A stretch of DNA of 64,000 nt from an uncultured bacterium (GTDB taxonomy: Bacteria; Patescibacteriota; Minisyncoccia; UBA6257; 2-01-FULL-56-20): NCBI GenBank assembly GCA_963844965.1, contig CAWJQC010000007.1, positions 1 through 64,000 on the forward strand, in the 5' to 3' direction. Below are positions 32,265 through 62,181 of the stretch, in pieces (position 1 is the first letter of the stretch; the number at the start of each line of letters is the position of its first letter). The notes under the pieces are model-generated. The model saw only the letters and a program-made list of their open reading frames with translations. It was not told the origin of the DNA and did no database searches. The translations under genes were made by a program, and so were the position numbers.

Positions 32265-33137
32265 CTATTCACGAGAGAAAACAACCTGAGGGCGGAACCC
32301 CAAGTCGTCGTCCCGTGCGGCAGGGCCATCCCAGTACACGTCGGAGAGGCCACCGTAGCCTGAGCTGCCGCCATCGAGGCGCCTCGCGCCCTTCTGGTAA
32401 GAATCTTCAAACCATTCCCAGGTATTGGTATCGCCCCACTCGGGGTGATAGGCGTTGCCGATGAAGTTCCATTCAATGGCTCGCGGCAGGCGGAGACACT
32501 CTTCGGGCACGTCCATTGCCTCCGCTATGGCTTTTTTCACTTCCGGCTTGTTCAGCTCGTCCCAGGAGATGTTGAAGCGGGAGCCTTTCGTCTCAAAGTC
32601 CGTAATAATCTTCTTTTTCCTCAAGTCCTCCAAGACGGGTCTGAGAACGTCGTCCTTATATATTTGCTTGCCGCTCTCGTACTTCGGCTTCCCGCGGGTG
32701 TCGACGAGAATCCAGGAGGCGGGGAGCTTCAGGGCGTCCTTCGGCAAATCGTCCTTTTTAACATCGGCATAAAATTCAATTCCCCAACCATCGGCATATT
32801 TTTTGCCCGGCTTCTTTTTCCAACCAGGCAAATCGCGCTCTTCTGTTAGTTCTTCATCGGGCAAGTAATGGAGCTCGAAGCCCATTTCCTTCCACTTCTC
32901 GTATCGTTCGGGTGTGATTTCTTCCGGCAGCGGTGGAACCTCAACGTCGTAGCCGAAGAATTCCCTGAGTTTCTCGGTTTCCTGTTCCATTAGTTCCCTG
33001 AACTCTGCCGAGGATTCGGGCGCTTTCCTTTTCTCCTTCTCCGCCTCGCCCAATGCTTTTTCCACCTTCTTCTGGACGGTGGTTTTGTACTGGTCGGGGT
33101 TATACTCTTCGTAGATTTTGTAACCGGGGAAGGGCAT
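32265..33137 (-). CDS. DGR target protein 3 (C-terminal C-type-lectin/FGE-like variable domain)
   Basis: Paralog of 36921-37799 and 37889-38737. C-terminus reads WEWFEDSYQKGARRLDGG...GFRPQVVFSRE and contains VR3. Confidence 0.8.
   Translation of the reverse strand: MPFPGYKIYEEYNPDQYKTTVQKKVEKALGEAEKEKRKAPESSAEFRELMEQETEKLREFFGYDVEVPPLPEEITPERYEKWKEMGFELHYLPDEELTEERDLPGWKKKPGKKYADGWGIEFYADVKKDDLPKDALKLPASWILVDTRGKPKYESGKQIYKDDVLRPVLEDLRKKKIITDFETKGSRFNISWDELNKPEVKKAIAEAMDVPEECLRLPRAIEWNFIGNAYHPEWGDTNTWEWFEDSYQKGARRLDGGSSGYGGLSDVYWDGPAARDDDLGFRPQVVFSRE
32285..32390 (-). repeat. DGR variable repeat VR3
   Basis: 106-nt match to the TR at 36576-36681 with 10 mismatches, all at TR adenines (coding sense). 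Confidence 0.85.
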
Positions 33138-36920: not shown

Positions 36921-37799
36921 CTACTCACGAGAGAAAACAACCTGAGGGCGGAACCCCAAGTCGTCGTTCCGTCCGGCAGGGCCATCCCAGTCCACGTGGG
37001 AGAGGCCACCGCGGCCTGAGTGGCCGCCATCGAGGCGCCTCGCGCCCTTTTGGTAAGAGTCCTCGAACCATTCCCAGGTATTCGTCTCACCCCACTTGGG
37101 ATAATAAAGATTTCCCATATAGTTCCATTCAATAGCTCTTGGAAGTCTCAGGGATTCGGGCGGAACGTCGAGTGCCTCCGCGATGGCTTTTTTCACTTCC
37201 GGCTTGTTCAGCTCGTCCCAGGAGATATTATAGCGAGAGTTCTTGACTTTGAAATCCGTGATTATCTTTTTCTTTCTCAAATCCTCAAGTGTCTCTGCCA
37301 GTATGTCTTCGGCATATTTTTGTTTGCCGTCTTGATAGTTGGGCTTTTCGCGGCTGTCCACGAGAATCCACGAGGCAGGTAGTTTGAGGGTGTCTTTCGG
37401 AAGATTGCCGTTCTTTACCTCGTCAAAAAACTCGATACCCCAACTCTTATCCGGAGTGTATCGCGTGCCCGGCTTCTTTTTCCAACCAGGCAAATCGCGC
37501 TCTTCTGTTAGCTCTTCATCGGGCAAGTAATGAAGTTCAAGCCCCATTTCTTTCCACTTTTCGTATCGTTCTGGTGTGATTTCTTCCGGCAGCAGTGGAA
37601 CCTCAACGTCGTAGCCGAAGAATTCCCTGAGTTTCTCGGTTTCCTGCTCCATTAGTTCCCTGAACTCTGCCGAGGATTCGGGTGCTTTCCTTTTCTCCTT
37701 CTCCGCCTCGCCCAATGCTTTTTCCACCTTCTTTTGAACGGTGGTTTTGTACTGGTCGGGGTTATACTCTTCGTAGATTTTGTAACCGGGGAAGGGCAT
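36921..37799 (-). CDS. DGR target protein 1
   Basis: 292 aa, paralog of targets 2 and 3. VR1 lies at its 3' end. Confidence 0.8.
   Translation of the reverse strand: MPFPGYKIYEEYNPDQYKTTVQKKVEKALGEAEKEKRKAPESSAEFRELMEQETEKLREFFGYDVEVPLLPEEITPERYEKWKEMGLELHYLPDEELTEERDLPGWKKKPGTRYTPDKSWGIEFFDEVKNGNLPKDTLKLPASWILVDSREKPNYQDGKQKYAEDILAETLEDLRKKKIITDFKVKNSRYNISWDELNKPEVKKAIAEALDVPPESLRLPRAIEWNYMGNLYYPKWGETNTWEWFEDSYQKGARRLDGGHSGRGGLSHVDWDGPAGRNDDLGFRPQVVFSRE
36942..37047 (-). repeat. DGR variable repeat VR1
   Basis: 10 mismatches to the TR, all at TR adenines. Confidence 0.85.
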
Positions 37800-37888: not shown

Positions 37889-38737
37889 CTACTCACGAGA
37901 GAAAACAACCTGAGGGCGGAACCCCAAGCTGCCGAGCCGCTCGGCAGGGTCATCCCAGTCCACGTGGGAGAGGCCACCGAGGCCTGAGCCGCCGCCATCG
38001 AGGCGCCTCGCGCCCTTTTGGTAAGAATCTTCAAACCATTCCCAGGTATTGGTATCGCCCCACTCGGGGTGATAGGCGTTGCCGATAACGTTCCATTCAA
38101 TCGCTCGCGGCAGGCGGAGACACTCTTCGGGCACGTCCATTGCCTCCGCTATGGCCTTTTTGACTTCGGGCTTATTCAGTTCGTCCCAGGAGATGTTGAA
38201 GCGGGAGCCTTTCGTCTCAAAGTCCGTAATAATCTTCTTTTTCCTCAAGTCCTCTAAGACGGGTCTGAGGACGTCGTCCTTATATATTTGCTTGCCGCTC
38301 TCGTACTTCGGCTTCCCGCGGGTGTCGACGAGAATCCAGGCGTCGGGGAGCTTAGCAGCATCGGCAGGGATTTCGTTCGCCTCTAAGCGGCCATAAAACC
38401 AATCTCCAGGTTTCTTTTTCCACCCCGGGAAAGCGGCATCCTTCCTCATCTCTTCCGGGGGAAGGTAGTGCAATTCAAAACCCATCTCTTTCCATTTTTC
38501 ATAACGCTCGGGGGTAACTTCATCGGGTAAGGGCGGGACTTCAACCTCATGACCGAAGAAAGTGCTGAGAGATTCTGTCTCGCGATCTACCAGTTCCCGG
38601 AATTCCGCTGATTCCGGCGTCATTCTCCCTTTCTCCTTCTCCGCCTCGCCCAGTGCTTTTTCCACCTTCTTCTGGACGGTGGTTTTGTACTGGTCGGGGT
38701 TGTACTCTTCATAGATTTTGTAGCCGGGGAAGGGCAT
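37889..38737 (-). CDS. DGR target protein 2
   Basis: 282 aa paralog. The N-terminal 200 aa are ~80% identical to targets 1 and 3. Confidence 0.8.
   Translation of the reverse strand: MPFPGYKIYEEYNPDQYKTTVQKKVEKALGEAEKEKGRMTPESAEFRELVDRETESLSTFFGHEVEVPPLPDEVTPERYEKWKEMGFELHYLPPEEMRKDAAFPGWKKKPGDWFYGRLEANEIPADAAKLPDAWILVDTRGKPKYESGKQIYKDDVLRPVLEDLRKKKIITDFETKGSRFNISWDELNKPEVKKAIAEAMDVPEECLRLPRAIEWNVIGNAYHPEWGDTNTWEWFEDSYQKGARRLDGGGSGLGGLSHVDWDDPAERLGSLGFRPQVVFSRE
37900..38005 (-). repeat. DGR variable repeat VR2
   Basis: 13 mismatches to the TR, all at TR adenines. Confidence 0.85.
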
Positions 38738-41456: not shown

Positions 41457-42239
41457 TTAAGCCGCAATCTTCTCGGCAAACACGGACGGCGGCATCTTGA
41501 GGGCGGAGTGGATCCGCGTGTGGTTGTACTGCCACAAGGTGCTGTAGATCTCCGCCACGAGCTCGCCGAAGGTCCCGAACCGGTTGGGATCACCGAGGTC
41601 AATCTTGAACTTGTCATAGAACGATTCCTGGTAGCCGTTTTCCCATGGGGCACCGGGCCGCGACCGCGAGATCGTGATGCCACAGTCCCCCAGTGTATCG
41701 GTGAACGCTCGTGCCTTGTACTCGCTGCCGTTGTCCGAATGGAAGATGACCGGATGCGGATGGTGGAAAAGCGCGTTGGCCAGGGTCTGTATCGTGAGGG
41801 GCGATCCTTTCCGCAACGCCACATGGACGCCCATCAATCGTCTCGTGAAAAGATCGAGTATCGTGGACACGTACACTTTCTTGCCGCGATACAGGAACTC
41901 CGTGAAATCGGTTGCCCAGACGTGGTTCGCGTACGAGGGCATGATGGCAAGTAAGAGGTTCGGAAAGGCCCGCGATGCCTTTGATTTCCGGTATTTCCTG
42001 CCTCGCCTCCGGTACGGCCTTATGCCGAAGATTCGCATGACGCGCTGCGCTCGCGGACGGCTCACGCCCAGAGCTTGTCCCAAGCGCCGGGAACCGTATG
42101 CCGGATGGCGCTGCAATTCTTCTTCCATGCGGATCTTGAGCGCCCAATCTTTCTTGTCCTGCCGTGATACGTAGTAGAGCGATGCCCGCGAGACGCCCAT
42201 GGCCCGCGCCATGGCGGACTTGTTCCGCTTTTCCGTCAA
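41457..42239 (-). CDS. IS3 transposase OrfB (DDE integrase core)
   Basis: HSDNGSEY and PWENGYQESF motifs. 260 aa. Confidence 0.9.
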   Translation of the reverse strand: MTEKRNKSAMARAMGVSRASLYYVSRQDKKDWALKIRMEEELQRHPAYGSRRLGQALGVSRPRAQRVMRIFGIRPYRRRGRKYRKSKASRAFPNLLLAIMPSYANHVWATDFTEFLYRGKKVYVSTILDLFTRRLMGVHVALRKGSPLTIQTLANALFHHPHPVIFHSDNGSEYKARAFTDTLGDCGITISRSRPGAPWENGYQESFYDKFKIDLGDPNRFGTFGELVAEIYSTLWQYNHTRIHSALKMPPSVFAEKIAA

Positions 42240-45827: not shown

Positions 45828-46091
45828 ATGAGCAACAAAAAAGGGCATCGGATTGCGAAGGAAGTGAAGGCGGACATCCTCCGCCGGGTGAAGGAAGAAG
45901 GAGTCCCCGTAGCGCAGGCTGCGAAGGACCACGGTTTGCACGAGTCCACCATCTACAATTGGCTAGGCGCAGGAGCATCGGGCGTCCCTTCCTGGGGCGA
46001 GTTCAGCCGTCTCCAGAAGCAGAACAGGGAGCTGTTTGAAGTGGTGGGCGAGCTCACCGTGAAGCTCTCCCAGGCCCAAAAAAAGAATTGA
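45828..46091 (+). CDS. IS3 transposase OrfA
   Basis: Identical to the orfA at 42236-42499. Confidence 0.9.
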   Translation: MSNKKGHRIAKEVKADILRRVKEEGVPVAQAAKDHGLHESTIYNWLGAGASGVPSWGEFSRLQKQNRELFEVVGELTVKLSQAQKKN

Positions 46092-46870
46092 CGGAAAAGC
46101 GGAACAAGTCCGCCATGGCGCGGGCCATGGGCGTCTCGCGGGCATCGCTCTACTACGTATCACGGCAGGACAAGAAAGATTGGGCGCTCAAGATCCGCAT
46201 GGAAGAAGAATTGCAGCGCCATCCGGCATACGGTTCCCGGCGCTTGGGACAAGCTCTGGGCGTGAGCCGTCCGCGAGCGCAGCGCGTCATGCGAATCTTC
46301 GGCATAAGGCCGTACCGGAGGCGAGGCAGGAAATACCGGAAATCAAAGGCATCGCGGGCCTTTCCGAACCTCTTACTTGCCATCATGCCCTCGTACGCGA
46401 ACCACGTCTGGGCAACCGATTTCACGGAGTTCCTGTATCGCGGCAAGAAAGTGTACGTGTCCACGATACTCGATCTTTTCACGAGACGATTGATGGGCGT
46501 CCATGTGGCGTTGCGGAAAGGATCGCCCCTCACGATACAGACCCTGGCCAACGCGCTTTTCCACCATCCGCATCCGGTCATCTTCCATTCGGACAACGGC
46601 AGCGAGTACAAGGCACGAGCGTTCACCGATACACTGGGGGACTGTGGCATCACGATCTCGCGGTCGCGGCCCGGTGCCCCATGGGAAAACGGCTACCAGG
46701 AATCGTTCTATGACAAGTTCAAGATTGACCTCGGTGATCCCAACCGGTTCGGGACCTTCGGCGAGCTCGTGGCGGAGATCTACAGCACCTTGTGGCAGTA
46801 CAACCACACGCGGATCCACTCCGCCCTCAAGATGCCGCCGTCCGTGTTTGCCGAGAAGATTGCGGCTTAA
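46088..46870 (+). CDS. IS3 transposase OrfB
   Basis: Identical to the orfB at 41457-42239. Confidence 0.9.
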   Translation: MTEKRNKSAMARAMGVSRASLYYVSRQDKKDWALKIRMEEELQRHPAYGSRRLGQALGVSRPRAQRVMRIFGIRPYRRRGRKYRKSKASRAFPNLLLAIMPSYANHVWATDFTEFLYRGKKVYVSTILDLFTRRLMGVHVALRKGSPLTIQTLANALFHHPHPVIFHSDNGSEYKARAFTDTLGDCGITISRSRPGAPWENGYQESFYDKFKIDLGDPNRFGTFGELVAEIYSTLWQYNHTRIHSALKMPPSVFAEKIAA

Positions 46871-47691: not shown

Positions 47692-48129
47692 CTAAAGCCC
47701 GCGGCTTGTGTTCGGCTCCTGTTCCCACTGGTTTCTGATATATTCTCTCATCGCTTTTTCGTTTTGACGGCCAACGGTTTCGGCAAAGTAACCATCCTGC
47801 CACAAGCTGTCTCCCCAGAGGAATTCTTCCAGCTCGGGAAATTCTTTTCTGACAGCCCTGGACGTACCGCCTTTGAGATAAAACACCGCTTTGGCAACCG
47901 TCAGGGTAGCAGGAATTTGAAGCAATAGATGGACATGGTCGGGCATTATCTGCGCTTCATGGATGAACCATTTATTCATCTTGGCGGCTTGAAAGAACAA
48001 TGTCTTGAGTCGCCCGACCATGTCCCCTCGCAGTATCGAGCGGCGGTACTTTGGGCAGAAAACAACGTGGTACAAACATCGCGTATAGCTGTGGTTGCTT
48101 GGCCAGAATCCAGAGGGCATTATCTTCAT
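47692..48129 (-). CDS. tnpA: IS200/IS605-family transposase TnpA (HUH Y1)
   Basis: YHVVFCPKYRR, HUH motif DHVHLLL and catalytic Y in ..GYFAETVG. 145 aa. Confidence 0.85.
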   Translation of the reverse strand: MKIMPSGFWPSNHSYTRCLYHVVFCPKYRRSILRGDMVGRLKTLFFQAAKMNKWFIHEAQIMPDHVHLLLQIPATLTVAKAVFYLKGGTSRAVRKEFPELEEFLWGDSLWQDGYFAETVGRQNEKAMREYIRNQWEQEPNTSRGL

Positions 48130-50566: not shown

Positions 50567-52177
50567 ATGTCTGATACGCCCGGTTTCATAGGGGGAGCTA
50601 TGCGCAAGGGTCTTCTTGTTGCCCTATTGGCCTTCATTGTGCTCGCCGGTCTGACCATCTCGATCGGCTTGTATTATTATCGATTTATAAATCAGCAGCT
50701 TACTTTGAGCGTTTACAATCACCGGCTGGTTGTCGCGAGCCTGACCGCATCCGGAATCAAGTTGAAATTGGACCATCTTGAGGGGATCGCGATATCTTTC
50801 GCGGCGCAGGACGACATGCGCGCAGAAATTATTGGCGGCAGATGGGAAGACGCCATGGCTAAGGCCGAGGACCTCTCCAACAGCCCAGATTTTTATGATT
50901 ACTACATAGACAGAACCTTATTGGTGGACGCCTCGGGAGCCATAAGAGCTGCCTATCCGCTCCTTAGCGGAACCATGGGTTTGCCCAAGTCAAATTTTAA
51001 GGAGTGGAGCGTTCCCCTTGAGAACGGGCAGGCCGCGTATGTTTCCGATGTCTATGAAAGGTCCGTCTCCCCGCGGATTAATGTCGTTGACGTCGTCGCG
51101 CCGGTTGCGGCGCACTCCGTTATTTACGGCTTCGTCGTTCTGCAGGTGCCCATCAATGAATTTTCCGATTTCGGCCAGGATACCGACATCAGCTCCAACG
51201 GTTTTGCCTACATAGTTGACAGGAAGGGTCAGATTGTATATCACCCGAAATATTCTTCCGTCGGTCCCATTGTTGACTATTCGGAGGTGCCGGCTGTGCA
51301 AAAATTGCTCAGCGGCGAAACCGGAATCGGAATTTTATCCAATCCGATTGAGAGAACGGAGAGAGTGTCGGCTTACGAATTGGTGCCGACATACGGGTGG
51401 GGCGTTGTGTCCGTGGAGCCGACCGCGGACGCGTTTGAGGCGCGGAATAGCATTTTGCACCAGATTTTGCTGGCCATTTCGGTTTTATGCGCATCAGAGC
51501 TTTTCCTGGCGATTTTCATTTTTTGGCTGGTTACGAGGTCCGAGAGAAGCAAACCGAACGCGGGATACGCGAGACAATTTCCGAAGACGCCGCCGAGGGC
51601 CAGCGGAGGGTTCACGCTGATAGAACTTTTGGTCGTTATCGCCATTATCGCCGTTTTGTCCATAGTCGTCATCCTGACCCTTAATCCGACGGAACTTCTG
51701 CGCCAGGCGAGGGATTCCGACAGGATTTCGGATCTCTCCATAATAAAGAGCGCCATTTCTATTTATTTGGTAGACCTGCGCAATCCGATTATCGCTTCCT
51801 CTACGGAATACTGCTACGAATCGGTCTTGGCAGCGAACGTCACCACTACCTACAGCACTTGGTTTCCCTCAATCCCACTCGGCAATGCGACTACTTCTCC
51901 GCAAGCTACCTACAGAAATATTGACGGCACGGGCTGGATTCATGTGAACTTTACCCAAATCAGCGCCGGCACGCCCTTCGGCCAGCTTCCGATCGACCCC
52001 TTGAATAACGCACAGTATATGTATATGTATGTAGGCAGTTCCACGCAGTCCACATTCAAACTCGCTACGGATATGGAAAGTTCAAAGTACGGCAATGGCG
52101 GAGCAGCGGACGTTGAGTCAAAAGACGGCGGCACTGACCCGAATAAATACGAAGCCGGAAGCAATCTCAATTTGTAG
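50567..52177 (+). CDS. in-frame fusion: TM/Cache-like periplasmic domain/TM followed by a type IV pilin (prepilin motif GFTLIELLVVIAIIAV)
   Basis: Residues 1 to about 330 are 2 TM helices flanking a Cache-like domain. Residues from about 345 are a pilin paralogous to 52349-52954 and 53262-53888, with no intervening stop or start codon. Confidence 0.55.
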   Translation: MSDTPGFIGGAMRKGLLVALLAFIVLAGLTISIGLYYYRFINQQLTLSVYNHRLVVASLTASGIKLKLDHLEGIAISFAAQDDMRAEIIGGRWEDAMAKAEDLSNSPDFYDYYIDRTLLVDASGAIRAAYPLLSGTMGLPKSNFKEWSVPLENGQAAYVSDVYERSVSPRINVVDVVAPVAAHSVIYGFVVLQVPINEFSDFGQDTDISSNGFAYIVDRKGQIVYHPKYSSVGPIVDYSEVPAVQKLLSGETGIGILSNPIERTERVSAYELVPTYGWGVVSVEPTADAFEARNSILHQILLAISVLCASELFLAIFIFWLVTRSERSKPNAGYARQFPKTPPRASGGFTLIELLVVIAIIAVLSIVVILTLNPTELLRQARDSDRISDLSIIKSAISIYLVDLRNPIIASSTEYCYESVLAANVTTTYSTWFPSIPLGNATTSPQATYRNIDGTGWIHVNFTQISAGTPFGQLPIDPLNNAQYMYMYVGSSTQSTFKLATDMESSKYGNGGAADVESKDGGTDPNKYEAGSNLNL

Positions 52178-52348
52178 ATATATTTGCAAATGTGTCTTCG
52201 CGCGCTACTTCCCGCACCTCCTCAGGACGGGTTTTCGGTTATCCACAGAGGCGGTTATGAAGACGTGAGCGGTTTGTTACAATTAAGATTGTTGGTATTA
52301 GCAAAACGAAAAAGGTCGATTTGACGCGATGTTTAGTGTGAAATAAAC

Positions 52349-52954
52349 ATGTCAAAGAAAACCAATAAAGGTTTTACGCTCGTTGAGCTTCTGGTTGTTA
52401 TCGCCATTATCGCCGTAATGTCCATAGTCGTCATTTTGACCCTTAACCCGGCGGAACTTCTGCGCCAGTCAAGGGATTCCAACAGAATTTCGGATATGGC
52501 GACGCTTAAGAGCGCGATGTCGCTCTACCTCGCGGATGTGAACGCGCCGTACCTCGGGACAAGTACCTGGTGTTATCAGGATGTAAGCGCGGCAAACGCC
52601 GCTACCGCGGGCACGAGCTCGAATTCCTGCAATGCTACGTTCGGTAATAATCCCGCCACAAATGCCGTGAGCAATGTGGCTTCTCCGAGGAATGTGGACG
52701 GCACGGGCTGGATTCCGGTTAATTTCTCCAAAATCAGCTCCGGCGCTCCGTTCGGCCAGCTTCCGATTGACCCCCTGGACAATGATGCGTTGCACCTGTA
52801 TCTCTACAAGACATCGAGCACGCTTCTCACTTTCCACATTGCAGTAAAGATGGAAAGCGCGAAGTACAGCTATCCTTCAGCCACCAATATTGAGGGTACC
52901 GATGGCGGCACCTCGCTTACCGAGTATGAAGTTGGAAATAATTTGAGCTTGTAA
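52349..52954 (+). CDS. type IV pilin
   Basis: Class III signal MSKKTNKG|FTLVELLVVIAIIAV. Conserved upstream motif GGTCGATTTGACGCGAT. Confidence 0.85.
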   Translation: MSKKTNKGFTLVELLVVIAIIAVMSIVVILTLNPAELLRQSRDSNRISDMATLKSAMSLYLADVNAPYLGTSTWCYQDVSAANAATAGTSSNSCNATFGNNPATNAVSNVASPRNVDGTGWIPVNFSKISSGAPFGQLPIDPLDNDALHLYLYKTSSTLLTFHIAVKMESAKYSYPSATNIEGTDGGTSLTEYEVGNNLSL

Positions 52955-53261
52955 CGTCTGCGGACGGCAAGCCAGTCCGATTCTTGGCTTAAGAACGTGA
53001 GCGCTCCGACCAAAGTCGGAGCGCTCACGTTTCTGCGTTGCCAGAACATCGTTCCGACCGCGGAAATATGCGGCGGCTCGGTTTCTGAGGCCGGCTCCAT
53101 CTTTGCTTTCGTTGATTTGCGCGAGCGGTATGGCCATAAATTGGGCTTTTGGGTTATCCACAGAGCATTCTGCGGATAAGGGGGAGATTTGCTATAATGT
53201 ATTTGTTGGTATTAACCAAACAAGAAAGGTCGATTTGACGCGATATTCACACAAAACGAAT

Positions 53262-53888
53262 ATGTCAAAGAAAACCAGCAAAGGTTTTACACTTATTGAA
53301 CTTTTGGTCGTTATTGCCATTATCGCCGTCTTGTCCATAGTCGTCATCTTGACCCTTAACCCCGCGGAACTCCTGCGTCAGGCGAGGGATTCCAACAGAA
53401 TTTCGGATATGTCCGTGGCGAAGAGCGCGATTTCGCTCTACCTCGCGGACGTGAGCTCGAATATCTCTATCGGGAGCACAACACCGTTCGTATACTGCTA
53501 TGAGGATGTTTCTGCGGCAAATGCGACCACTAATGGCACTACTTCGGCGAGTTGCAAAAGTGGTGTGGCAGGCGCAGAAACGTTTGCGAGCGACATAAGC
53601 TCCTCTAGCAACGCGGTTACTCCCAGAAACGTTGACGGCACGGGCTGGATTCCGGTTAACTTCACTAAAATCAGCTCCGGCGCGCCAATCGGTCAGCTTC
53701 CGGTTGACCCGTTAGATAATGACGGCATGCACATGTACCTCTACAGAACGAGTTCAACCCTCGTTTTCAAGATGGCGACAAAGATGGAAAGCTCTAAGTA
53801 CAGCAAGGGCGGCGCAGGTGACGTTGAGTCAACCGATGGCGGCACTAATACTGGCATGTATGAATCGGGAACCAATTTGAGTTTGTAG
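53262..53888 (+). CDS. type IV pilin
   Basis: MSKKTSKG|FTLIELLVVIAIIAV. Same upstream motif as the 52349 pilin. The ORF-track start at 53103 is probably an upstream extension. Confidence 0.85.
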   Translation: MSKKTSKGFTLIELLVVIAIIAVLSIVVILTLNPAELLRQARDSNRISDMSVAKSAISLYLADVSSNISIGSTTPFVYCYEDVSAANATTNGTTSASCKSGVAGAETFASDISSSSNAVTPRNVDGTGWIPVNFTKISSGAPIGQLPVDPLDNDGMHMYLYRTSSTLVFKMATKMESSKYSKGGAGDVESTDGGTNTGMYESGTNLSL

Positions 53889-54127
53889 TATGTAGGCGTG
53901 TGAAAGTTTGTCCCGGCGGTTTGTCCCACAAGGGGAGCGCTCCGACTTTGGTCGGAGCGCTCCTTTGTGTTTTTGGCCGTGAAGCCGTATTTTGTTATGA
54001 TTAAGGAGTAATCGCCGATGATGCGAATCCTGGCCCATTTTCACCAAACCTCCAGCGAGGTAAACAGATAATACCGACGAGGATTCGCATTATTGAATGA
54101 AAATTCGCGTTATTAGCGAACACTCTT

Positions 54128-55843
54128 ATGAGGACGCCCTTGCCGCCGCTACAACTTAAAAAGGCGCTTATGGCCGATAACCTGATCACGGCCGAGAGAT
54201 TTGACGAACTTCTCGGGGAAGCCGAGAGGAAAGACCAGAACATACTTGATGTTCTTGTTTCCGAGAAGATCGCGAGCTACGGGTTTTTGGGCGATATGGT
54301 GGCGAAGATCTTGGGAGTTGAACGTGTGGATTTCGCGGCGAAATCCACTGACAGGCAAACCGTGCAGATGCTTCCGGAAGACGTCGCGCGGCAGCGGCAG
54401 GTGATAGTCTTTGACCGCGAGCCGAACGGGACACTGGACGTAGCCATGACAGATCCTTCCGACCTGGAAACCATAGAATTTCTGACCCAGCGCTTTAAGG
54501 TGGAAATCAGGCCGTTTCTCGCCACGGCGGACGATTTGAACCGCGGCTTCGCGGTGTACGGCTATGAACTCGGCCAGGATTTCAAAAAATTGATTGAGGA
54601 AAATATCAAGGCCTCGCTTACGAGCCGCGCCGGAACAATAGAGGAAGCGGCGTCTCAATTGCCGATTGTCGGCATCGTGGACAACATCTTGTCCTACGCG
54701 ATGGCTTCCAGGGCGTCGGATATCCACATTGAAATATTTGAAGAGGCGACCCTCATCCGCTACAGGATTGACGGGATTTTATACGAGATCATGAGCATCG
54801 CCAAGGCGGTGCATCCGGCCATTGTCGCGAGAATTAAACTCCTCTCCGGCCTCAAAATTGACGAGCACGTGAAACCGCAGGACGGCCGTTTCCGCCACCA
54901 GATTGTCGGCGATATCATTGACGTCAGGGTTTCGGTGATGCCGACCTACTTCGGAGAGAAGGTGGAAATGAGATTATTGGAAGCCGCGCAGAAGCCGCTT
55001 TCGTTGGAAGAACTGGGGATCGAGCGGGAAACCGCGAAGATCATTTCTGACAATCTCGGCAACACTTTCGGAATGATACTTTCGTGCGGGCCGACCGGTT
55101 CGGGAAAAACGACCACGCTGTACGCTGTGATGAACATAATCAACAAGCCGCAGATTAACGTCGTGACGATTGAAGATCCGATTGAATATAACATGCGCTA
55201 TGTGAATCAGACGCAGATCAATCCGCAGGCGGGAATAACTTTTGCCTCCGGTCTCAGAGCGATACTCCGCCAGGACCCGAACGTTATCATGGTCGGCGAG
55301 ATCAGGGATTCGGAAACCGCGGAAATAGCCGTGCAAGCCGCGATCACAGGCCACCTTTTGTTGTCGTCTTTGCACACCAACGACGCGCTTACTGCCATCC
55401 CGCGCCTCTTTGACCTGAAGGTGCAGCCGTTTCTTGTATCTTCCGTCCTGAATTTGATAATTGCCCAGCGGCTGGTTAGAAGAATTTGCCAAAGTTGCGT
55501 GTGCTCCTATGACGCCGGTCCGGAGGTGGGTCGGATTATCGCCGAGCAGTTCAAAGAGTCCGGCATCTCCAAAGAGGTCATAAGAGTTCCCAAAACGTTG
55601 TATAGGGGCAAAGGTTGTGCCGCTTGCGGCATGACAGGATACAAGGGACGGCTGGGAATTTTTGAGATATTCGCCGTTGATGATAAAATTAGGAAGATTA
55701 TGAATGATTCAGACTTTGACTTTGACAAGCTCCGCGCGGCGGCGCGCGAGCGCGGCATGAGAACGATTTTTGAGGACGGTCTCGACAAAGCGGAATTGGC
55801 CATTACGACCCTGGAAGAGGTGTTGAGGGTGGTGCAGGAATAG
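54128..55843 (+). CDS. pilB: type IV pilus assembly ATPase PilB (GspE family)
   Basis: N-terminal T2SSE_N domain, Walker A GPTGSGKTTTLYA and a CxxC...CxxC tetracysteine. Confidence 0.9.
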   Translation: MRTPLPPLQLKKALMADNLITAERFDELLGEAERKDQNILDVLVSEKIASYGFLGDMVAKILGVERVDFAAKSTDRQTVQMLPEDVARQRQVIVFDREPNGTLDVAMTDPSDLETIEFLTQRFKVEIRPFLATADDLNRGFAVYGYELGQDFKKLIEENIKASLTSRAGTIEEAASQLPIVGIVDNILSYAMASRASDIHIEIFEEATLIRYRIDGILYEIMSIAKAVHPAIVARIKLLSGLKIDEHVKPQDGRFRHQIVGDIIDVRVSVMPTYFGEKVEMRLLEAAQKPLSLEELGIERETAKIISDNLGNTFGMILSCGPTGSGKTTTLYAVMNIINKPQINVVTIEDPIEYNMRYVNQTQINPQAGITFASGLRAILRQDPNVIMVGEIRDSETAEIAVQAAITGHLLLSSLHTNDALTAIPRLFDLKVQPFLVSSVLNLIIAQRLVRRICQSCVCSYDAGPEVGRIIAEQFKESGISKEVIRVPKTLYRGKGCAACGMTGYKGRLGIFEIFAVDDKIRKIMNDSDFDFDKLRAAARERGMRTIFEDGLDKAELAITTLEEVLRVVQE

Positions 55844-55980: not shown

Positions 55981-57190
55981 ATGCTCTATCGTTACGTCGC
56001 GGCGGATAAGGGGGGCAGGGTTCACGAGTCGCAATTGGATGCCGACAACTTGAATCAGGTTCTCCAGTACTTGGCCGGGCACGAACTCCAACCAATCTCG
56101 GTTAAGCCCCTCGGAGAAGCGCATGCGACCGCGTGGCACTTTTTTGGCAAGAAGATTTCCACGACGGACAAGGTTTTTTTAACTAAATACTTGGCCCTGA
56201 TGCTGCGGGTGGGGACCGATTTGCTGTCGGCCATTAATATTCTGATCCAGGACTTTGATAAGCCGGCGGTGAGAAATTTTCTTCTGGAAGTAAGGGATAA
56301 TCTGACCCGCGGCCGCCAGTTTTACACCGCGTTTGAGGCGCACGAAGACGTTTTTTCCCCGGCTCTCGTCAATATGATAAGGGCGGCGGAGGCTTCCGGG
56401 AATCTCCAGCAGACCATGGAGGATTTGAGCGTCAGTTTGGGTCGTGACGCCGAGCTCGGTGGGCGTATAAAGTCGGCGCTTATCTATCCGATAATCCTGC
56501 TTTCACTTTCTTCCGTGATCATAGTTTTTTATGGTGACCTACGCGCTGCCCAAGGTTGCCAAGGTTTTCACGGATAGTGGCATAAAACCGCCGATTTTTT
56601 CGCGAATTGTGTTTACGGTCGGCCTCTTTGTGGGAGATCATATAATTGTGATTTGCATTTTGCTTGTAGGCACGATAGTGGGCGTCATTTACGCTTATCT
56701 CAAAACCGTTATCGGGAGGCGCGTGATTAATCGCGTGCTTTTCGGTTTGCCCCTCATTAAGAAGATTTACAGCGAACTCGCGATTCAGCGGCTTGCCTCC
56801 ACGATGGGTTCGCTTATGAAGGCCGGCCTGCCGATTACAGAAAGCATTAAAGTCGCCGCAAGGACTGTCGGCCTTGACGAATACCGCTTTCAGCTGGAGC
56901 GCGTTGCCGATGGAATCACCAAGGGGCTTACACTTGGGGAGGCGTTCAAACGCGAGGTTGTTTTTCCCAAGACGGTGGTCAATTTGATTGCCATATCGGA
57001 GAAAGCCGGTCACCTTGAAGAAGTTTTGGCGACGCTCGCGGATTTTTACGCGTCTAGCGTTGATAACGGGATAAAGGCCATTGTGTCCCTGCTCGAGCCG
57101 GTTCTCTTGCTGACCATGGCCCTGTTTGTGGGAATATTAGCGGTTGCGATTATCGTGCCGATTTATCAGCTGACAAGCAACATCAGTTAA
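55981..57190 (+). CDS. pilC: type IV pilus platform protein PilC (GspF family), split by a T6 homopolymer frameshift at about 56530
   Basis: Two GspF repeats, ORFs 55981-56577 and 56531-57190. Removing one T restores ..IIVFMVTYALPKVAKVF. Confidence 0.8.
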
Positions 57191-60040: not shown

Positions 60041-61554
60041 ATGGCAATAAATTTTAAATATTACGCAGGAAAAATATTGTCCGCTCTGAGGATTAAGACC
60101 TTCGTGGGCGGCTTGGAGGTTTCCGATTCGGTGATGCGCTTCGCGTATTTTGACGGAAGGACGTGGCGTTTGGCTGGCGTGCGCCTCGAACCGGGCATAA
60201 TCGATGGCGGCAAGATAAAAAACCGCGACGGTTTCATTTCGGCCCTGCAGGCGCTCAAGTCCCAGATTTTCAGCGGTCACGATTTAAAAAGAGGGCCAGC
60301 GTCATTGTTTCTTTGAGTTCCATCGGCATTTACAGCCAGGTATTCAGCTTGCCGATTATAGAGGGGGAAAATCTGGAGAAGGCCATCCAACTTAATGTTC
60401 AGATGGTTTCTCCGATTGAGGCCTCGCAGGCTTACTCCGGTTGGCAGAAGGTCGGCGAGGATAAGGCCTCTTTGCGCCTTGAAATTTTGAGCGCTTTCGT
60501 GGACAAATCGGTGATTGACGAACTTAATCAGGCGCTTTTTGACGGCGGCTTTGTCGCCGCAGCGGTTGATTCGCGGGCGTTGTCTCTCGCTCGTCTTTTC
60601 CGGGAGGAAGGGATTGGTTTTGACGAGAACAAGTCCTACGTGCTTCTGAGCATTGACAGTTCCGGCATGGATTTTTTGATAATCAGGCGTAGCCAACTTT
60701 ATTTTGAATATTTTAGCCCCTGGCGCGAGGCCGCGGACGAGAAAGGCGAAATACAAATCTCTTCATTCAATGCCGCAATCACACGCAATCTTCACCGCGT
60801 TATGAATTTTTACAGTCAGCACTGGCCGGAACCCCTGGAGGGCGTTATACTTTCCGCGACCGCGCTGGTTGACGAGACGAAGAAGGTCGTTGCCGAAAAT
60901 TTCTCGCTCCCGGTGAGGGAATTGCGGCTAAGCATGGACCAATCAATAGGTCCGGAATGGTTCGTCGCCCTGGGGTGTGGACTGCGGGGTGTGAAGCCGA
61001 GGGGCGCCGATAAAGAAGTGAGTTTGCTGGGGATCGGCGCCGCAGAGGAGTTTTATCGCGAACAGCTGATTGGATTCATGAGTTTTTGGCGCTTGCTTGT
61101 GCCACTCGTGCTCGGTTTACTTGTTGTATCGTTTTTCTTGTCGGATTTATTCCTGATTCAGACGCGTCATTCTCTCGAGGCGCGAGCGCTGCCCACTTTT
61201 TCAGGCGAGCAAACAAAAGAGTATTCTACGCTCGCGGCGCAAGCCGATGACTTCAACCGCTCAGTTAAGCTGATTGAGAGTGTCCAGAGTTCACTTTTTT
61301 CGGATGGTAAGCTTTGGGATAAAATTTCTGGAATTATGGCTACCGCCGGGGTAAAACCAGACCACCTTTCTTTCCAGGGCATTAATTCGCCGGTTGCTTT
61401 GAGCGGTACCGCCAAATCAGAGGATCAGGTTATGGCCTTCAAATCCGCATTGGCGAACGATCCAGAATTCGGCGGGGTTAATTTGCCGATTTCAAACATT
61501 GAAACCAACCCCGAAGGAGTTTCTTTTTCCCTTACCTTTAACATAAATCACTAA
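60041..61554 (+). CDS. pilM: PilM actin-like protein fused to a PilN-like TM/coiled-coil C-terminus, split by an A5 homopolymer frameshift at about 60285
   Basis: ORFs 60041-60316 and 60163-61554. Adding one A gives ..HDLKKRASVIVSL... A C-terminal TM (FWRLLVPLVLGLLVV) is followed by a PilN-like region. Confidence 0.7.
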
Positions 61555-61571: not shown

Positions 61572-62181
61572 TCAGCTGCCGGCGAGACCGATATCTTCGG
61601 CAGCTTTTTTGACAGCCCGAGCCAGCAGTTCGGAGTTCTCCTTCCCGATTTTCTTTAAGACGAATTCCCCAGCCTTTTTTCTTGTTCCTAGTCCAACACC
61701 ATCCAGATGCTCCACTCTTATGCCAATACGCAAGCGCCACAGTTTTTTTGTGCCCAGACGGCTGATTATGGATTCAACTCCTTTGTGGCCGGCCGAGCCG
61801 CGGTTCCAGGACAACTTCGTGCGGCCGATCTCGAGAATCGCTGTCGTCGTGTATGACAAGGATTTCTTCGGGTCGGAGGTTGAAATAGTGGAGCGCCTTC
61901 TCTGCCACCGCACCGGATTCGTTCATAAAGGTCAAGGACTTGATCCAGACGAGCCTTTTCCCCCTGCAATATTCAAAGGACCTTCCGACTCTTTTCGTGG
62001 CAGCTGCTTCTTTGGTGTGATTCCGGCGCAGCCAATCAACAGCGCTGATACCGACATTGTGATAGGTGTTTTCGTATTCGGCCGCGGCATTTCCGAGTCC
62101 GATTATGGCTTTGATAGACGAGGCATCCCATTGTTTTTCACCCTCGGAGCTCGGAGCTTGATTCGATCCTTTTTTAGTCAT
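61572..62181 (-). CDS. pth: peptidyl-tRNA hydrolase, split by a 1-nt frameshift
   Basis: N-terminal IIGLGNAAAEYENTYHNVG..VIHDDSD in ORF 61774-62181. C-terminal ..GSAGHKGVESIISRLGTKKLWRLRIGI.. in ORF 61572-61913. Confidence 0.75.

Follow-up and report, generated by a model that had tools for sequence, protein, structure and literature searches.

The defining feature of type IV pilins is a class III signal peptide at the N-terminus, and only a pilin whose N-terminal helix is free can enter a filament. Cache domains rank among the commonest bacterial sensor domains and are normally read out by a cytoplasmic transmitter. In the stretch of DNA analyzed here (the window; 64,000 nucleotides, positions 1 to 64,000 of contig CAWJQC010000007.1, assembly GCA_963844965.1, from an uncultured bacterium of the Patescibacteriota), parts of both kinds occur in a single open reading frame (ORF) of 536 amino acids. 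This fused ORF lies on the forward strand at 50567..52177, runs from an ATG start to a stop codon, and holds a Cache module with two transmembrane (TM) helices (Cache-2TM) and a prepilin in one frame. Our reading, to which we give a probability of roughly 0.6, is that the ORF belongs to a small module family of Paceibacteria-type bacteria of the candidate phyla radiation (CPR) in which a sensor lacking a transmitter invariably has a single type IV pilin as its dedicated partner, that the fused form is cut by prepilin peptidase, and that the two partners interact. The family is rare and is confined to uncultivated bacteria. The ultrasmall, host-dependent CPR bacteria are believed to rely heavily on pili in finding and holding their hosts.

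Modular type IV pilins, such as PilB-vWA and PilC-lectin of Streptococcus sanguinis, share with the fused ORF the joining of a pilin module to a functional domain that is not pilus-specific (PMC8179133). They are common in CPR, and many pilin-LamG proteins were among the matches of our homolog search. In modular pilins, however, the pilin is N-terminal and the grafted module is C-terminal and enters the filament together with the pilin, whereas this order is reversed in the fused ORF, with the Cache module lying N-terminal of the cut site and having two TM helices of its own. The Cache module cannot be part of the polymerized pilin and, in a further difference from modular pilins, can also be encoded by a gene of its own. 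Only proteins with an N-terminal pilin motif and downstream modules were taken into the published survey of such pilins (PMC8179133).

The "leader" of the fused pilin comprises 347 residues with two TM helices and a folded extracytoplasmic domain, which sets it apart from long-leader prepilins; to our knowledge, known prepilin leaders have at most a few tens of residues. The likeness to long-leader prepilins (type IVb pilins and S. sanguinis PilE1/2) lies in the basic, hydrophilic cytoplasmic leader ending in Gly and in the α1N helix with Glu-5 (PMC10191384). Prepilin leaders in general are hydrophilic and variable in length, and are sometimes very long (PMC10191384). A class III signal behind a leader of 330–350 residues with two TM segments would widen the known substrate range of prepilin peptidase, and an internal signal peptide of this type behind a polytopic sensor would surprise pilus specialists.

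The dCache_1 sensor kinases and chemoreceptors (DctB, PctA, Mlp24, and the HK1S-Z family) continue after TM2 into a transmitter, whereas here TM2 is followed by a tail of ~10 residues where the two parts are split into separate genes, or by a loop into the pilin where they are fused, with no HAMP, PAS, HisKA, HATPase, MCP, or GGDEF transmitter. PilS of Pseudomonas aeruginosa and PleC of Caulobacter provide a precedent for a sensor TM region that touches α1N of unassembled pilins in the membrane (PMC6058289, PMC7196804). In contrast to the module described here, which has no kinase and one dedicated partner pilin, these two proteins are kinases, which monitor the pool of pilins and pass a signal on to the cytoplasm. 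The Cache and pilin parts are both of well-known kinds; their arrangement and the invariant pairing of sensor and pilin appear undescribed, and no description of Cache-pilin fusions or of internal prepilin signals was found in full-text literature.

Domain architecture of the fused ORF

The fused ORF is comprised of TM1, a double-Cache (dCache) domain, TM2, a basic 26-residue linker, and a full type IV pilin that begins at G|FTLIELLVVIAIIA. TM1 (~residues 15–37; 50609..50677, forward strand as for all parts of the ORF) was placed by hydropathy and by an AlphaFold2 (AF2) helix spanning residues 10–80, and is preceded by a short cytoplasmic tail with Arg-13 and Lys-14. The extracytoplasmic dCache_1 domain (~residues 38–297; 50678..51457) matches Pfam PF02743 over residues 111–283 with an E value of 5.9e-11 and 42.8 bits, slightly below the gathering score of 45 bits. 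TM2 (~residues 298–321; 51458..51529) was likewise placed by hydropathy and leads into the linker VTRSERSKPNAGYARQFPKTPPRASGG (residues 322–348; 51530..51610), which carries six Lys or Arg residues against one Asp or Glu and has Gly-348, the −1 residue of the pilin, as its last residue. The pilin α1N helix, FTLIELLVVIAIIAVLSIVVILTL, extends from Phe-349 to ~Leu-372 (51611..51682) and has Glu at +5. Pfam N_methyl (PF07963) matches residues 344–368 with 29.7 bits (cut-off 21.2), and the NCBIfam model TIGR02532 scores 24.2 bits (cut-off 16.3). Residues 373–536 (51683..52174) make up α1C and the globular head, which is of the type found in p2 and p3, two free pilins encoded downstream. The motif G348|FTLIELLVVIAIIAVLSIVVILTL thus combines Gly(−1), a hydrophobic stretch, and Glu(+5), with the predicted prepilin-peptidase cut between positions 51610 and 51611 (G348|F349). 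It begins at residue 348 of the ORF, in contrast to the N-terminal position by which a class III signal peptide is defined.

Hydropathy shows three membrane segments (residues 15–33, ~300–318, and 349–372). The basic linker is cytoplasmic by the positive-inside rule, and the Cache domain and the pilin head are consequently both placed outside. A first-pass annotation of the window had described the same order of TM1, Cache-like domain, TM2, basic linker, and prepilin, all of which are found by Pfam, NCBIfam, and hydropathy; its view that the linker is cytoplasmic and the topology self-consistent agrees with hydropathy and linker charge. As it had also pointed out, the fused pilin has no start codon of its own, with no ATG, GTG, or TTG among the 45 codons 5' of Gly-348.

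The AF2 model, built from a 70-row multiple sequence alignment, has a mean predicted local distance difference test (pLDDT) score of 88.6 and a predicted template modeling (pTM) score of 0.74, with pLDDT values of ~97 for the Cache part, ~54 for the linker, and ~90 for the pilin head; an earlier run with 13 sequences gave pLDDT values below 50 for the pilin half. The pilin half is modeled as a 53-residue α1 (helices 351–371 and 374–403) followed by β strands, and the predicted fold is the lollipop of a pilin, with an α1 of ~50 residues and a β head. The Cache part has the dCache fold, double PAS-like with a long N-terminal helix and two flanking TM helices. Residues of the Cache part that are invariant in the family include Asp-115, Arg-116, Trp-147, Asp-218, and Trp-278.

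Fused homologs conserve the processing motif

A homolog search covering 5.8 billion protein clusters recovered 12 full-length fused homologs (512–530 amino acids, 39–48% identical to the window ORF at 93–98% coverage) and 2 partial ones. All 14 contain dCache_1 and N_methyl in one ORF, which together with the window ORF gives 15 fused clusters. The homologs stem from JGI, ENA, NCBI, and Logan assemblies, and for one of them, P0007, several samples gave independent assemblies. A profile search for further fused proteins returned none beyond those already found, and a profile scan of genome contigs with the Cache alignment gave, among the matches listed, distant sensor-kinase-like loci (Binatia, Proteobacteria) and no CPR loci. 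Database labels for proteins of the family are [quoted passage not shown] "general secretion pathway protein G," and "cache domain-containing protein."

Gly(−1), Phe(+1), and Glu(+5) are kept in all 15 fused proteins, and the loop before Gly(−1) is 8–27 residues long and net basic in all of them except P0014. The mean pairwise identity among the 13 full-length fused proteins (including the window ORF) is 0.84 for residues 348–372, comprising Gly(−1) and α1N, and is lower in α1C (0.70), the pilin head (0.55), the Cache domain (0.39), TM1 (0.31), TM2 (0.24), and the linker (0.16). The difference between 0.84 for residues 348–372 and 0.24–0.31 for the other two membrane segments indicates a pilin-type constraint beyond that on a plain membrane anchor.

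Some fused homologs have an in-frame ATG 10–11 codons before Gly(−1), as seen at loci L031 and L044 (MISAKRRRRRSG and MATASTPRREG; ~30–33 nt 5' of GFTLIE). This ATG could be a relic of a split state, or it could be a working internal start. There is no such upstream ATG in the window ORF or in P0006, and P0003 has just a TTG, within TM2. Two proteins of the family look damaged: the pilin half of P0020 (402 amino acids, on a 69.8-kb contig) appears to be out of frame after ~40 residues, and the Cache part of P0018 (424 amino acids) is without its N-terminal third.

Split forms and sensor-kinase origin of the Cache part

About 25 clusters hold Cache-only proteins of 310–340 amino acids that end a few residues past TM2. 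All seven of those inspected (P0011, P0015, P0093, P0099, P0019, P0091, and P0239) are followed by an N_methyl pilin gene of 193–205 amino acids, and P0092, which scores highest among the free pilins of the partner type, has the C-terminus of a Cache-2TM gene directly upstream with an overlap of 8 nt. At each of the eight split loci inspected, a pilin gene of 193–207 amino acids lies at −23 to +20 nt and has its own ATG and a leader of 4–12 amino acids; the Cache-only genes at these loci encode 325–340 amino acids where complete, one of them ending at a contig end. A junction DNA pattern matched 50 loci in metagenome contigs, 8 of them true, namely 6 more split and 2 more fused loci; the remaining matches were rejected as chance matches 5' of unrelated pilins. 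Programmed frameshifting in the split forms was considered and is ruled out by the ordinary stop codons, the pilin's own ATG, the 4–12-residue leaders, and frame offsets that vary between lineages (+1 or +2).

Other neighbors of the inspected modules are unrelated housekeeping genes that are not conserved, so that the conserved unit is the Cache/pilin pair itself and not a pilus operon. The window is the sole inspected locus beside pilus machinery genes and tandem pilin genes. In one lineage of split modules, the Cache/pilin pair is immediately preceded by genes for a PAS-HisKA-HATPase kinase and a response regulator (7757–9526 in L005 and 719–2488 in L006), an arrangement not seen at other loci.

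Orthologs in which a stop and a start separate the two parts, which the first-pass annotation had regarded as decisive against a fusion, are thus present at the split loci. They do not refute it but show that a conserved gene pair can take either of two states, fused or split, which are interchangeable. The trees of the Cache part and of the partner pilins, each a single neighbor-joining (NJ) tree without support values, are broadly congruent, and fused and split members are interleaved on both. A syntenic ortholog pair captures the change of state. Locus L072 encodes the fused protein P0004 (521 amino acids), whereas L067 encodes P0091 (334 amino acids) and a 195-residue pilin whose genes overlap at ATGA. 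The two loci have common flanks (AI-2E_transport and DUF4382 upstream; DUF5670, bPH_2, and DUF4430 downstream), and their identity is 82% in the Cache halves and 81% in the pilin halves. The fused junction reads ...KIKFKKQKISGQRRG|FTLIE and the split junction ...KIKFKKPDISK* overlapping MKKG|FTLIE, so that the two are a 1-nt length change and a few substitutions apart. Judged from these comparisons, the conserved unit is the Cache-2TM and pilin module, present as one gene or as two, and the fused and split states interconvert, with L072 and L067 as a recent case. Our main argument follows from this pair: both halves are equally conserved in either state, which argues that the fused and split forms give equivalent products. 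Such natural pairs of fused and split orthologs are a ready-made experiment, and cleavage is directly testable.

The nearest relatives of the Cache part beyond the pilin-linked set are proteins of 570–1200 amino acids with the order TM-dCache_1-TM followed by PAS or GAF, HisKA, and HATPase_c. A domain search found no HisKA/HATPase_c transmitter in the window ORF or in the Cache-only homologs, and the cytoplasmic part of pilin-linked Cache proteins consists only of tails of ~10–25 residues. Given that their relatives are TM-dCache-TM sensor kinases, the pilin-linked Cache proteins resemble sensor-kinase input modules from which the transmitter has been lost. The pilin is the only conserved partner of the Cache part, which points to a membrane-level link from chemosensing to pilus assembly.

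Proposed processing and function of the module

In the mechanism we propose, the protein would insert with the Cache domain and the pilin head outside, leaving in the cytoplasm the short basic loop that connects TM2 to the pilin. Prepilin peptidase would cut this loop after Gly-348 (G348|F349), giving a Cache-2TM protein that ends in a short tail and a mature pilin whose Phe-1 is free, the same two products as those of the split genes. The Cache-2TM protein would then act on its partner pilin in or outside the membrane, via TM2–α1N contacts, Cache–head contacts, or both, and an external ligand would cause the partner pilin to be held or released for incorporation into the pilus.

Cleavage of the fused form at the normal pilin processing site is probable, since filament entry needs a free N-terminal pilin helix, the processing motif is strictly kept, and the fused and split forms appear equivalent. 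The Gly|Phe bond, in a cytoplasmic loop at the membrane surface, has the same placement as in an ordinary prepilin. Prepilin peptidases act at the membrane's cytoplasmic face, where they cleave after Gly or Ala without the help of any other protein (PMC10191384), and PilD is widespread in CPR (PMC6744442). The release of a pilin from a sensor-domain leader, as the first-pass annotation had suggested, is a well-motivated inference. Because the Cache-2TM protein has no cytoplasmic output domain, we infer that it acts on the partner pilin, and, by the logic of gene fusions, the short cytoplasmic hairpin loop between TM2 and α1N suggests physical contact in the membrane. The sensor and the pilin probably work together.

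It is unlikely, in our judgment, that the fusion is real and stays uncleaved, as a three-helix membrane receptor whose pilin-like part never enters a filament and instead serves permanently for anchoring or docking, for instance at the pilus base. Such a protein would fit with the AF2 model, which folds as a single chain, with the tethering of TM2 8–27 residues 5' of the cut site, which might hinder access of the peptidase, and with the literature, where no precedent for internal prepilin processing was found. A plain anchor, however, needs no invariant Gly(−1), Phe(+1), and Glu(+5), nor an α1N that is 84% identical while TM1 and TM2 drift to 24–31%. In addition, the split state yields a normal free prepilin, and the 81% conservation of the pilin across fused and split orthologs points to the same end products.

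Several points weigh against the proposed cleavage and partnership. The literature yielded no precedent for prepilin peptidase cleavage at an internal site that follows a 347-residue leader with two TM helices, and no prepilin peptidase gene was recognized among the window ORFs, which were scanned for PilD-like motifs only. Fused homologs with an internal ATG could also make the pilin separately. The assembly has indel-type breaks outside the fused ORF, and the window copy, with its atypical pilin head and a lost Cys, could be a secondary hybrid.

A more specific version of the proposed mechanism, which we put forward only tentatively and consider doubtful, is signaling in one step. A ligand bound outside would shift TM2 and thereby control, in the fused form, whether the peptidase can reach the loop or, in the split form, whether the pilin leaves a TM2–α1N complex. 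CPR bacteria have few regulators. If signaling were of this kind, pilus priming or composition in CPR would respond directly, at the post-translational level, to a chemical cue such as one from a host cell, and the fused protein would contain the first natural internal class III signal peptide, making it a polytopic polyprotein substrate of prepilin peptidase.

The junction between Cache and pilin parts in the window

The first-pass annotation had called the assembly error-prone, and this is plausible, as three genes of the window are split, two of them at homopolymer runs. The gene for a PilC-type platform protein (55981–57190, forward strand) is broken into two ORFs at a T6 run (~56525–56530), a PilM/N-like gene (within 60041–61554) is broken near an A6 run (~60213–60218), and a Pth-like gene is split at 61572–62181 on the reverse strand. 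These breaks are homopolymer indel errors or pseudogenes, and with three broken genes in the assembly the window's own junction deserves suspicion. The fused ORF could accordingly be viewed as an assembly artifact, in which separate genes arranged as in P0011 had their frames merged by an indel error. Consistent with this, P0011, the Cache sister and closest relative of the window ORF, has the split form, the window ORF is the single member of its 90% cluster, and a T6 run (51519–51524) lies within TM2. An exact-protein look-up of the window ORF found no matching contig on record and hence no independent assembly of the junction.

The DNA around the junction nevertheless argues against an artifact. 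The longest homopolymer in the linker (51530–51610) is 3 nt, the T6 run in TM2 being the sole long run nearby, and since there is no start in the 45 codons before Gly-348, a +1 or −1 correction at this run would still leave the pilin without a start. The linker as read in frame is basic, its length is typical of the family and in the same class as in the 14 other fused proteins, and it has a PK[TS] motif in common with P0002 and P0003. The fused state is also genuine in other genomes. As the fusion recurs in divergent, independently assembled proteins that all keep the cleavage motif, these comparisons strongly favor a real fusion over a stop or start lost through an indel, the alternative that the first-pass annotation had offered, and we consider an artifact at this junction very unlikely.

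The pilin head of the window copy

The fused pilin shares 61–64% amino acid identity with p2 and p3 overall and 48–57% in the head, and 64–69% identity at the nucleotide level. The first-pass description of it as a paralog of the two downstream pilins therefore stands, but it missed that the partner pilins of the other modules form a clade of their own, with the motifs NLASS..GY..CY.S, KCG.F, YYYAYAA, and DGGDN, for which the window head is atypical. The window head groups with p2 and p3, being 57% identical to p3 and 49% identical to the pilin that partners its Cache sister, and has the p2/p3 motifs DGGT and FK.A..MES. The second Cys of the conserved pair is missing.

These features, and the position of the window, alone among the inspected loci, next to tandem pilin genes, would be expected if the window copy were a decaying or secondary hybrid, in which an ancestral Cache-pilin gene recombined, within the conserved 5' pilin region, with a neighboring cassette of the major-pilin type and is no longer functional. 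We regard this as improbable, and about as improbable as an artifact at the junction. The ORF is open across 536 codons, the NJ placement of the head rests on modest identity differences, and the nucleotide identity to p2 and p3 is low, with exact runs of at most 21 nt; any exchange would hence be ancient and the gene would have been kept open since. The same values exclude p2 and p3 as partners in a recent gene conversion or an assembly chimera. For the origin of the window head, an old exchange of cassettes in the conserved 5' region of the pilin gene is a reasonable possibility.

Neighboring genes in the window

The two free pilin paralogs are encoded on the forward strand downstream of the fused ORF. 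The p2 gene (52349..52954) encodes 201 amino acids and the p3 gene (53262..53888) 208 amino acids, each with its own ATG and an 8-residue leader (MSKKTNKG and MSKKTSKG, respectively). A 17-mer, GGTCGATTTGACGCGAT, has two exact occurrences in the whole window, ~20 nt 5' of the p2 and p3 start codons (52314–52330 and 53228–53244), which bears out the first-pass remark that a conserved upstream motif is missing from the fused pilin. The 17-mer holds TTGACG, a −35-like hexamer, and GC-rich hairpins lie 3' of both genes (~52998–53030 for p2 and 53931–53966 for p3). With the −35-like hexamer upstream and a hairpin downstream of each, p2 and p3 look like separate, strongly expressed transcription units. 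The gene for a PilB-type ATPase (54128–55843, forward strand) lies between p3 and the broken PilC-type gene.

Mobile elements sit just 5' of the pilus region of the window. An ORF resembling those of insertion sequences and starting with LTEKRNKSAMARAMGVSRASLYYVSRQ is present in three copies, at 1–837 and 41457–42239 on the reverse strand and at 46088–46870 on the forward strand, and an IS200-like Y1 transposase (132.8 bits) is encoded at 47692–48129 on the reverse strand. Three paralogous ORFs of ~285 amino acids with the common N-terminus MPFPGYKIYEEYNPDQYKTTVQKKVEKALGEAEKEK are found at 32265–33137, 36921–37799, and 37889–38737 on the reverse strand.

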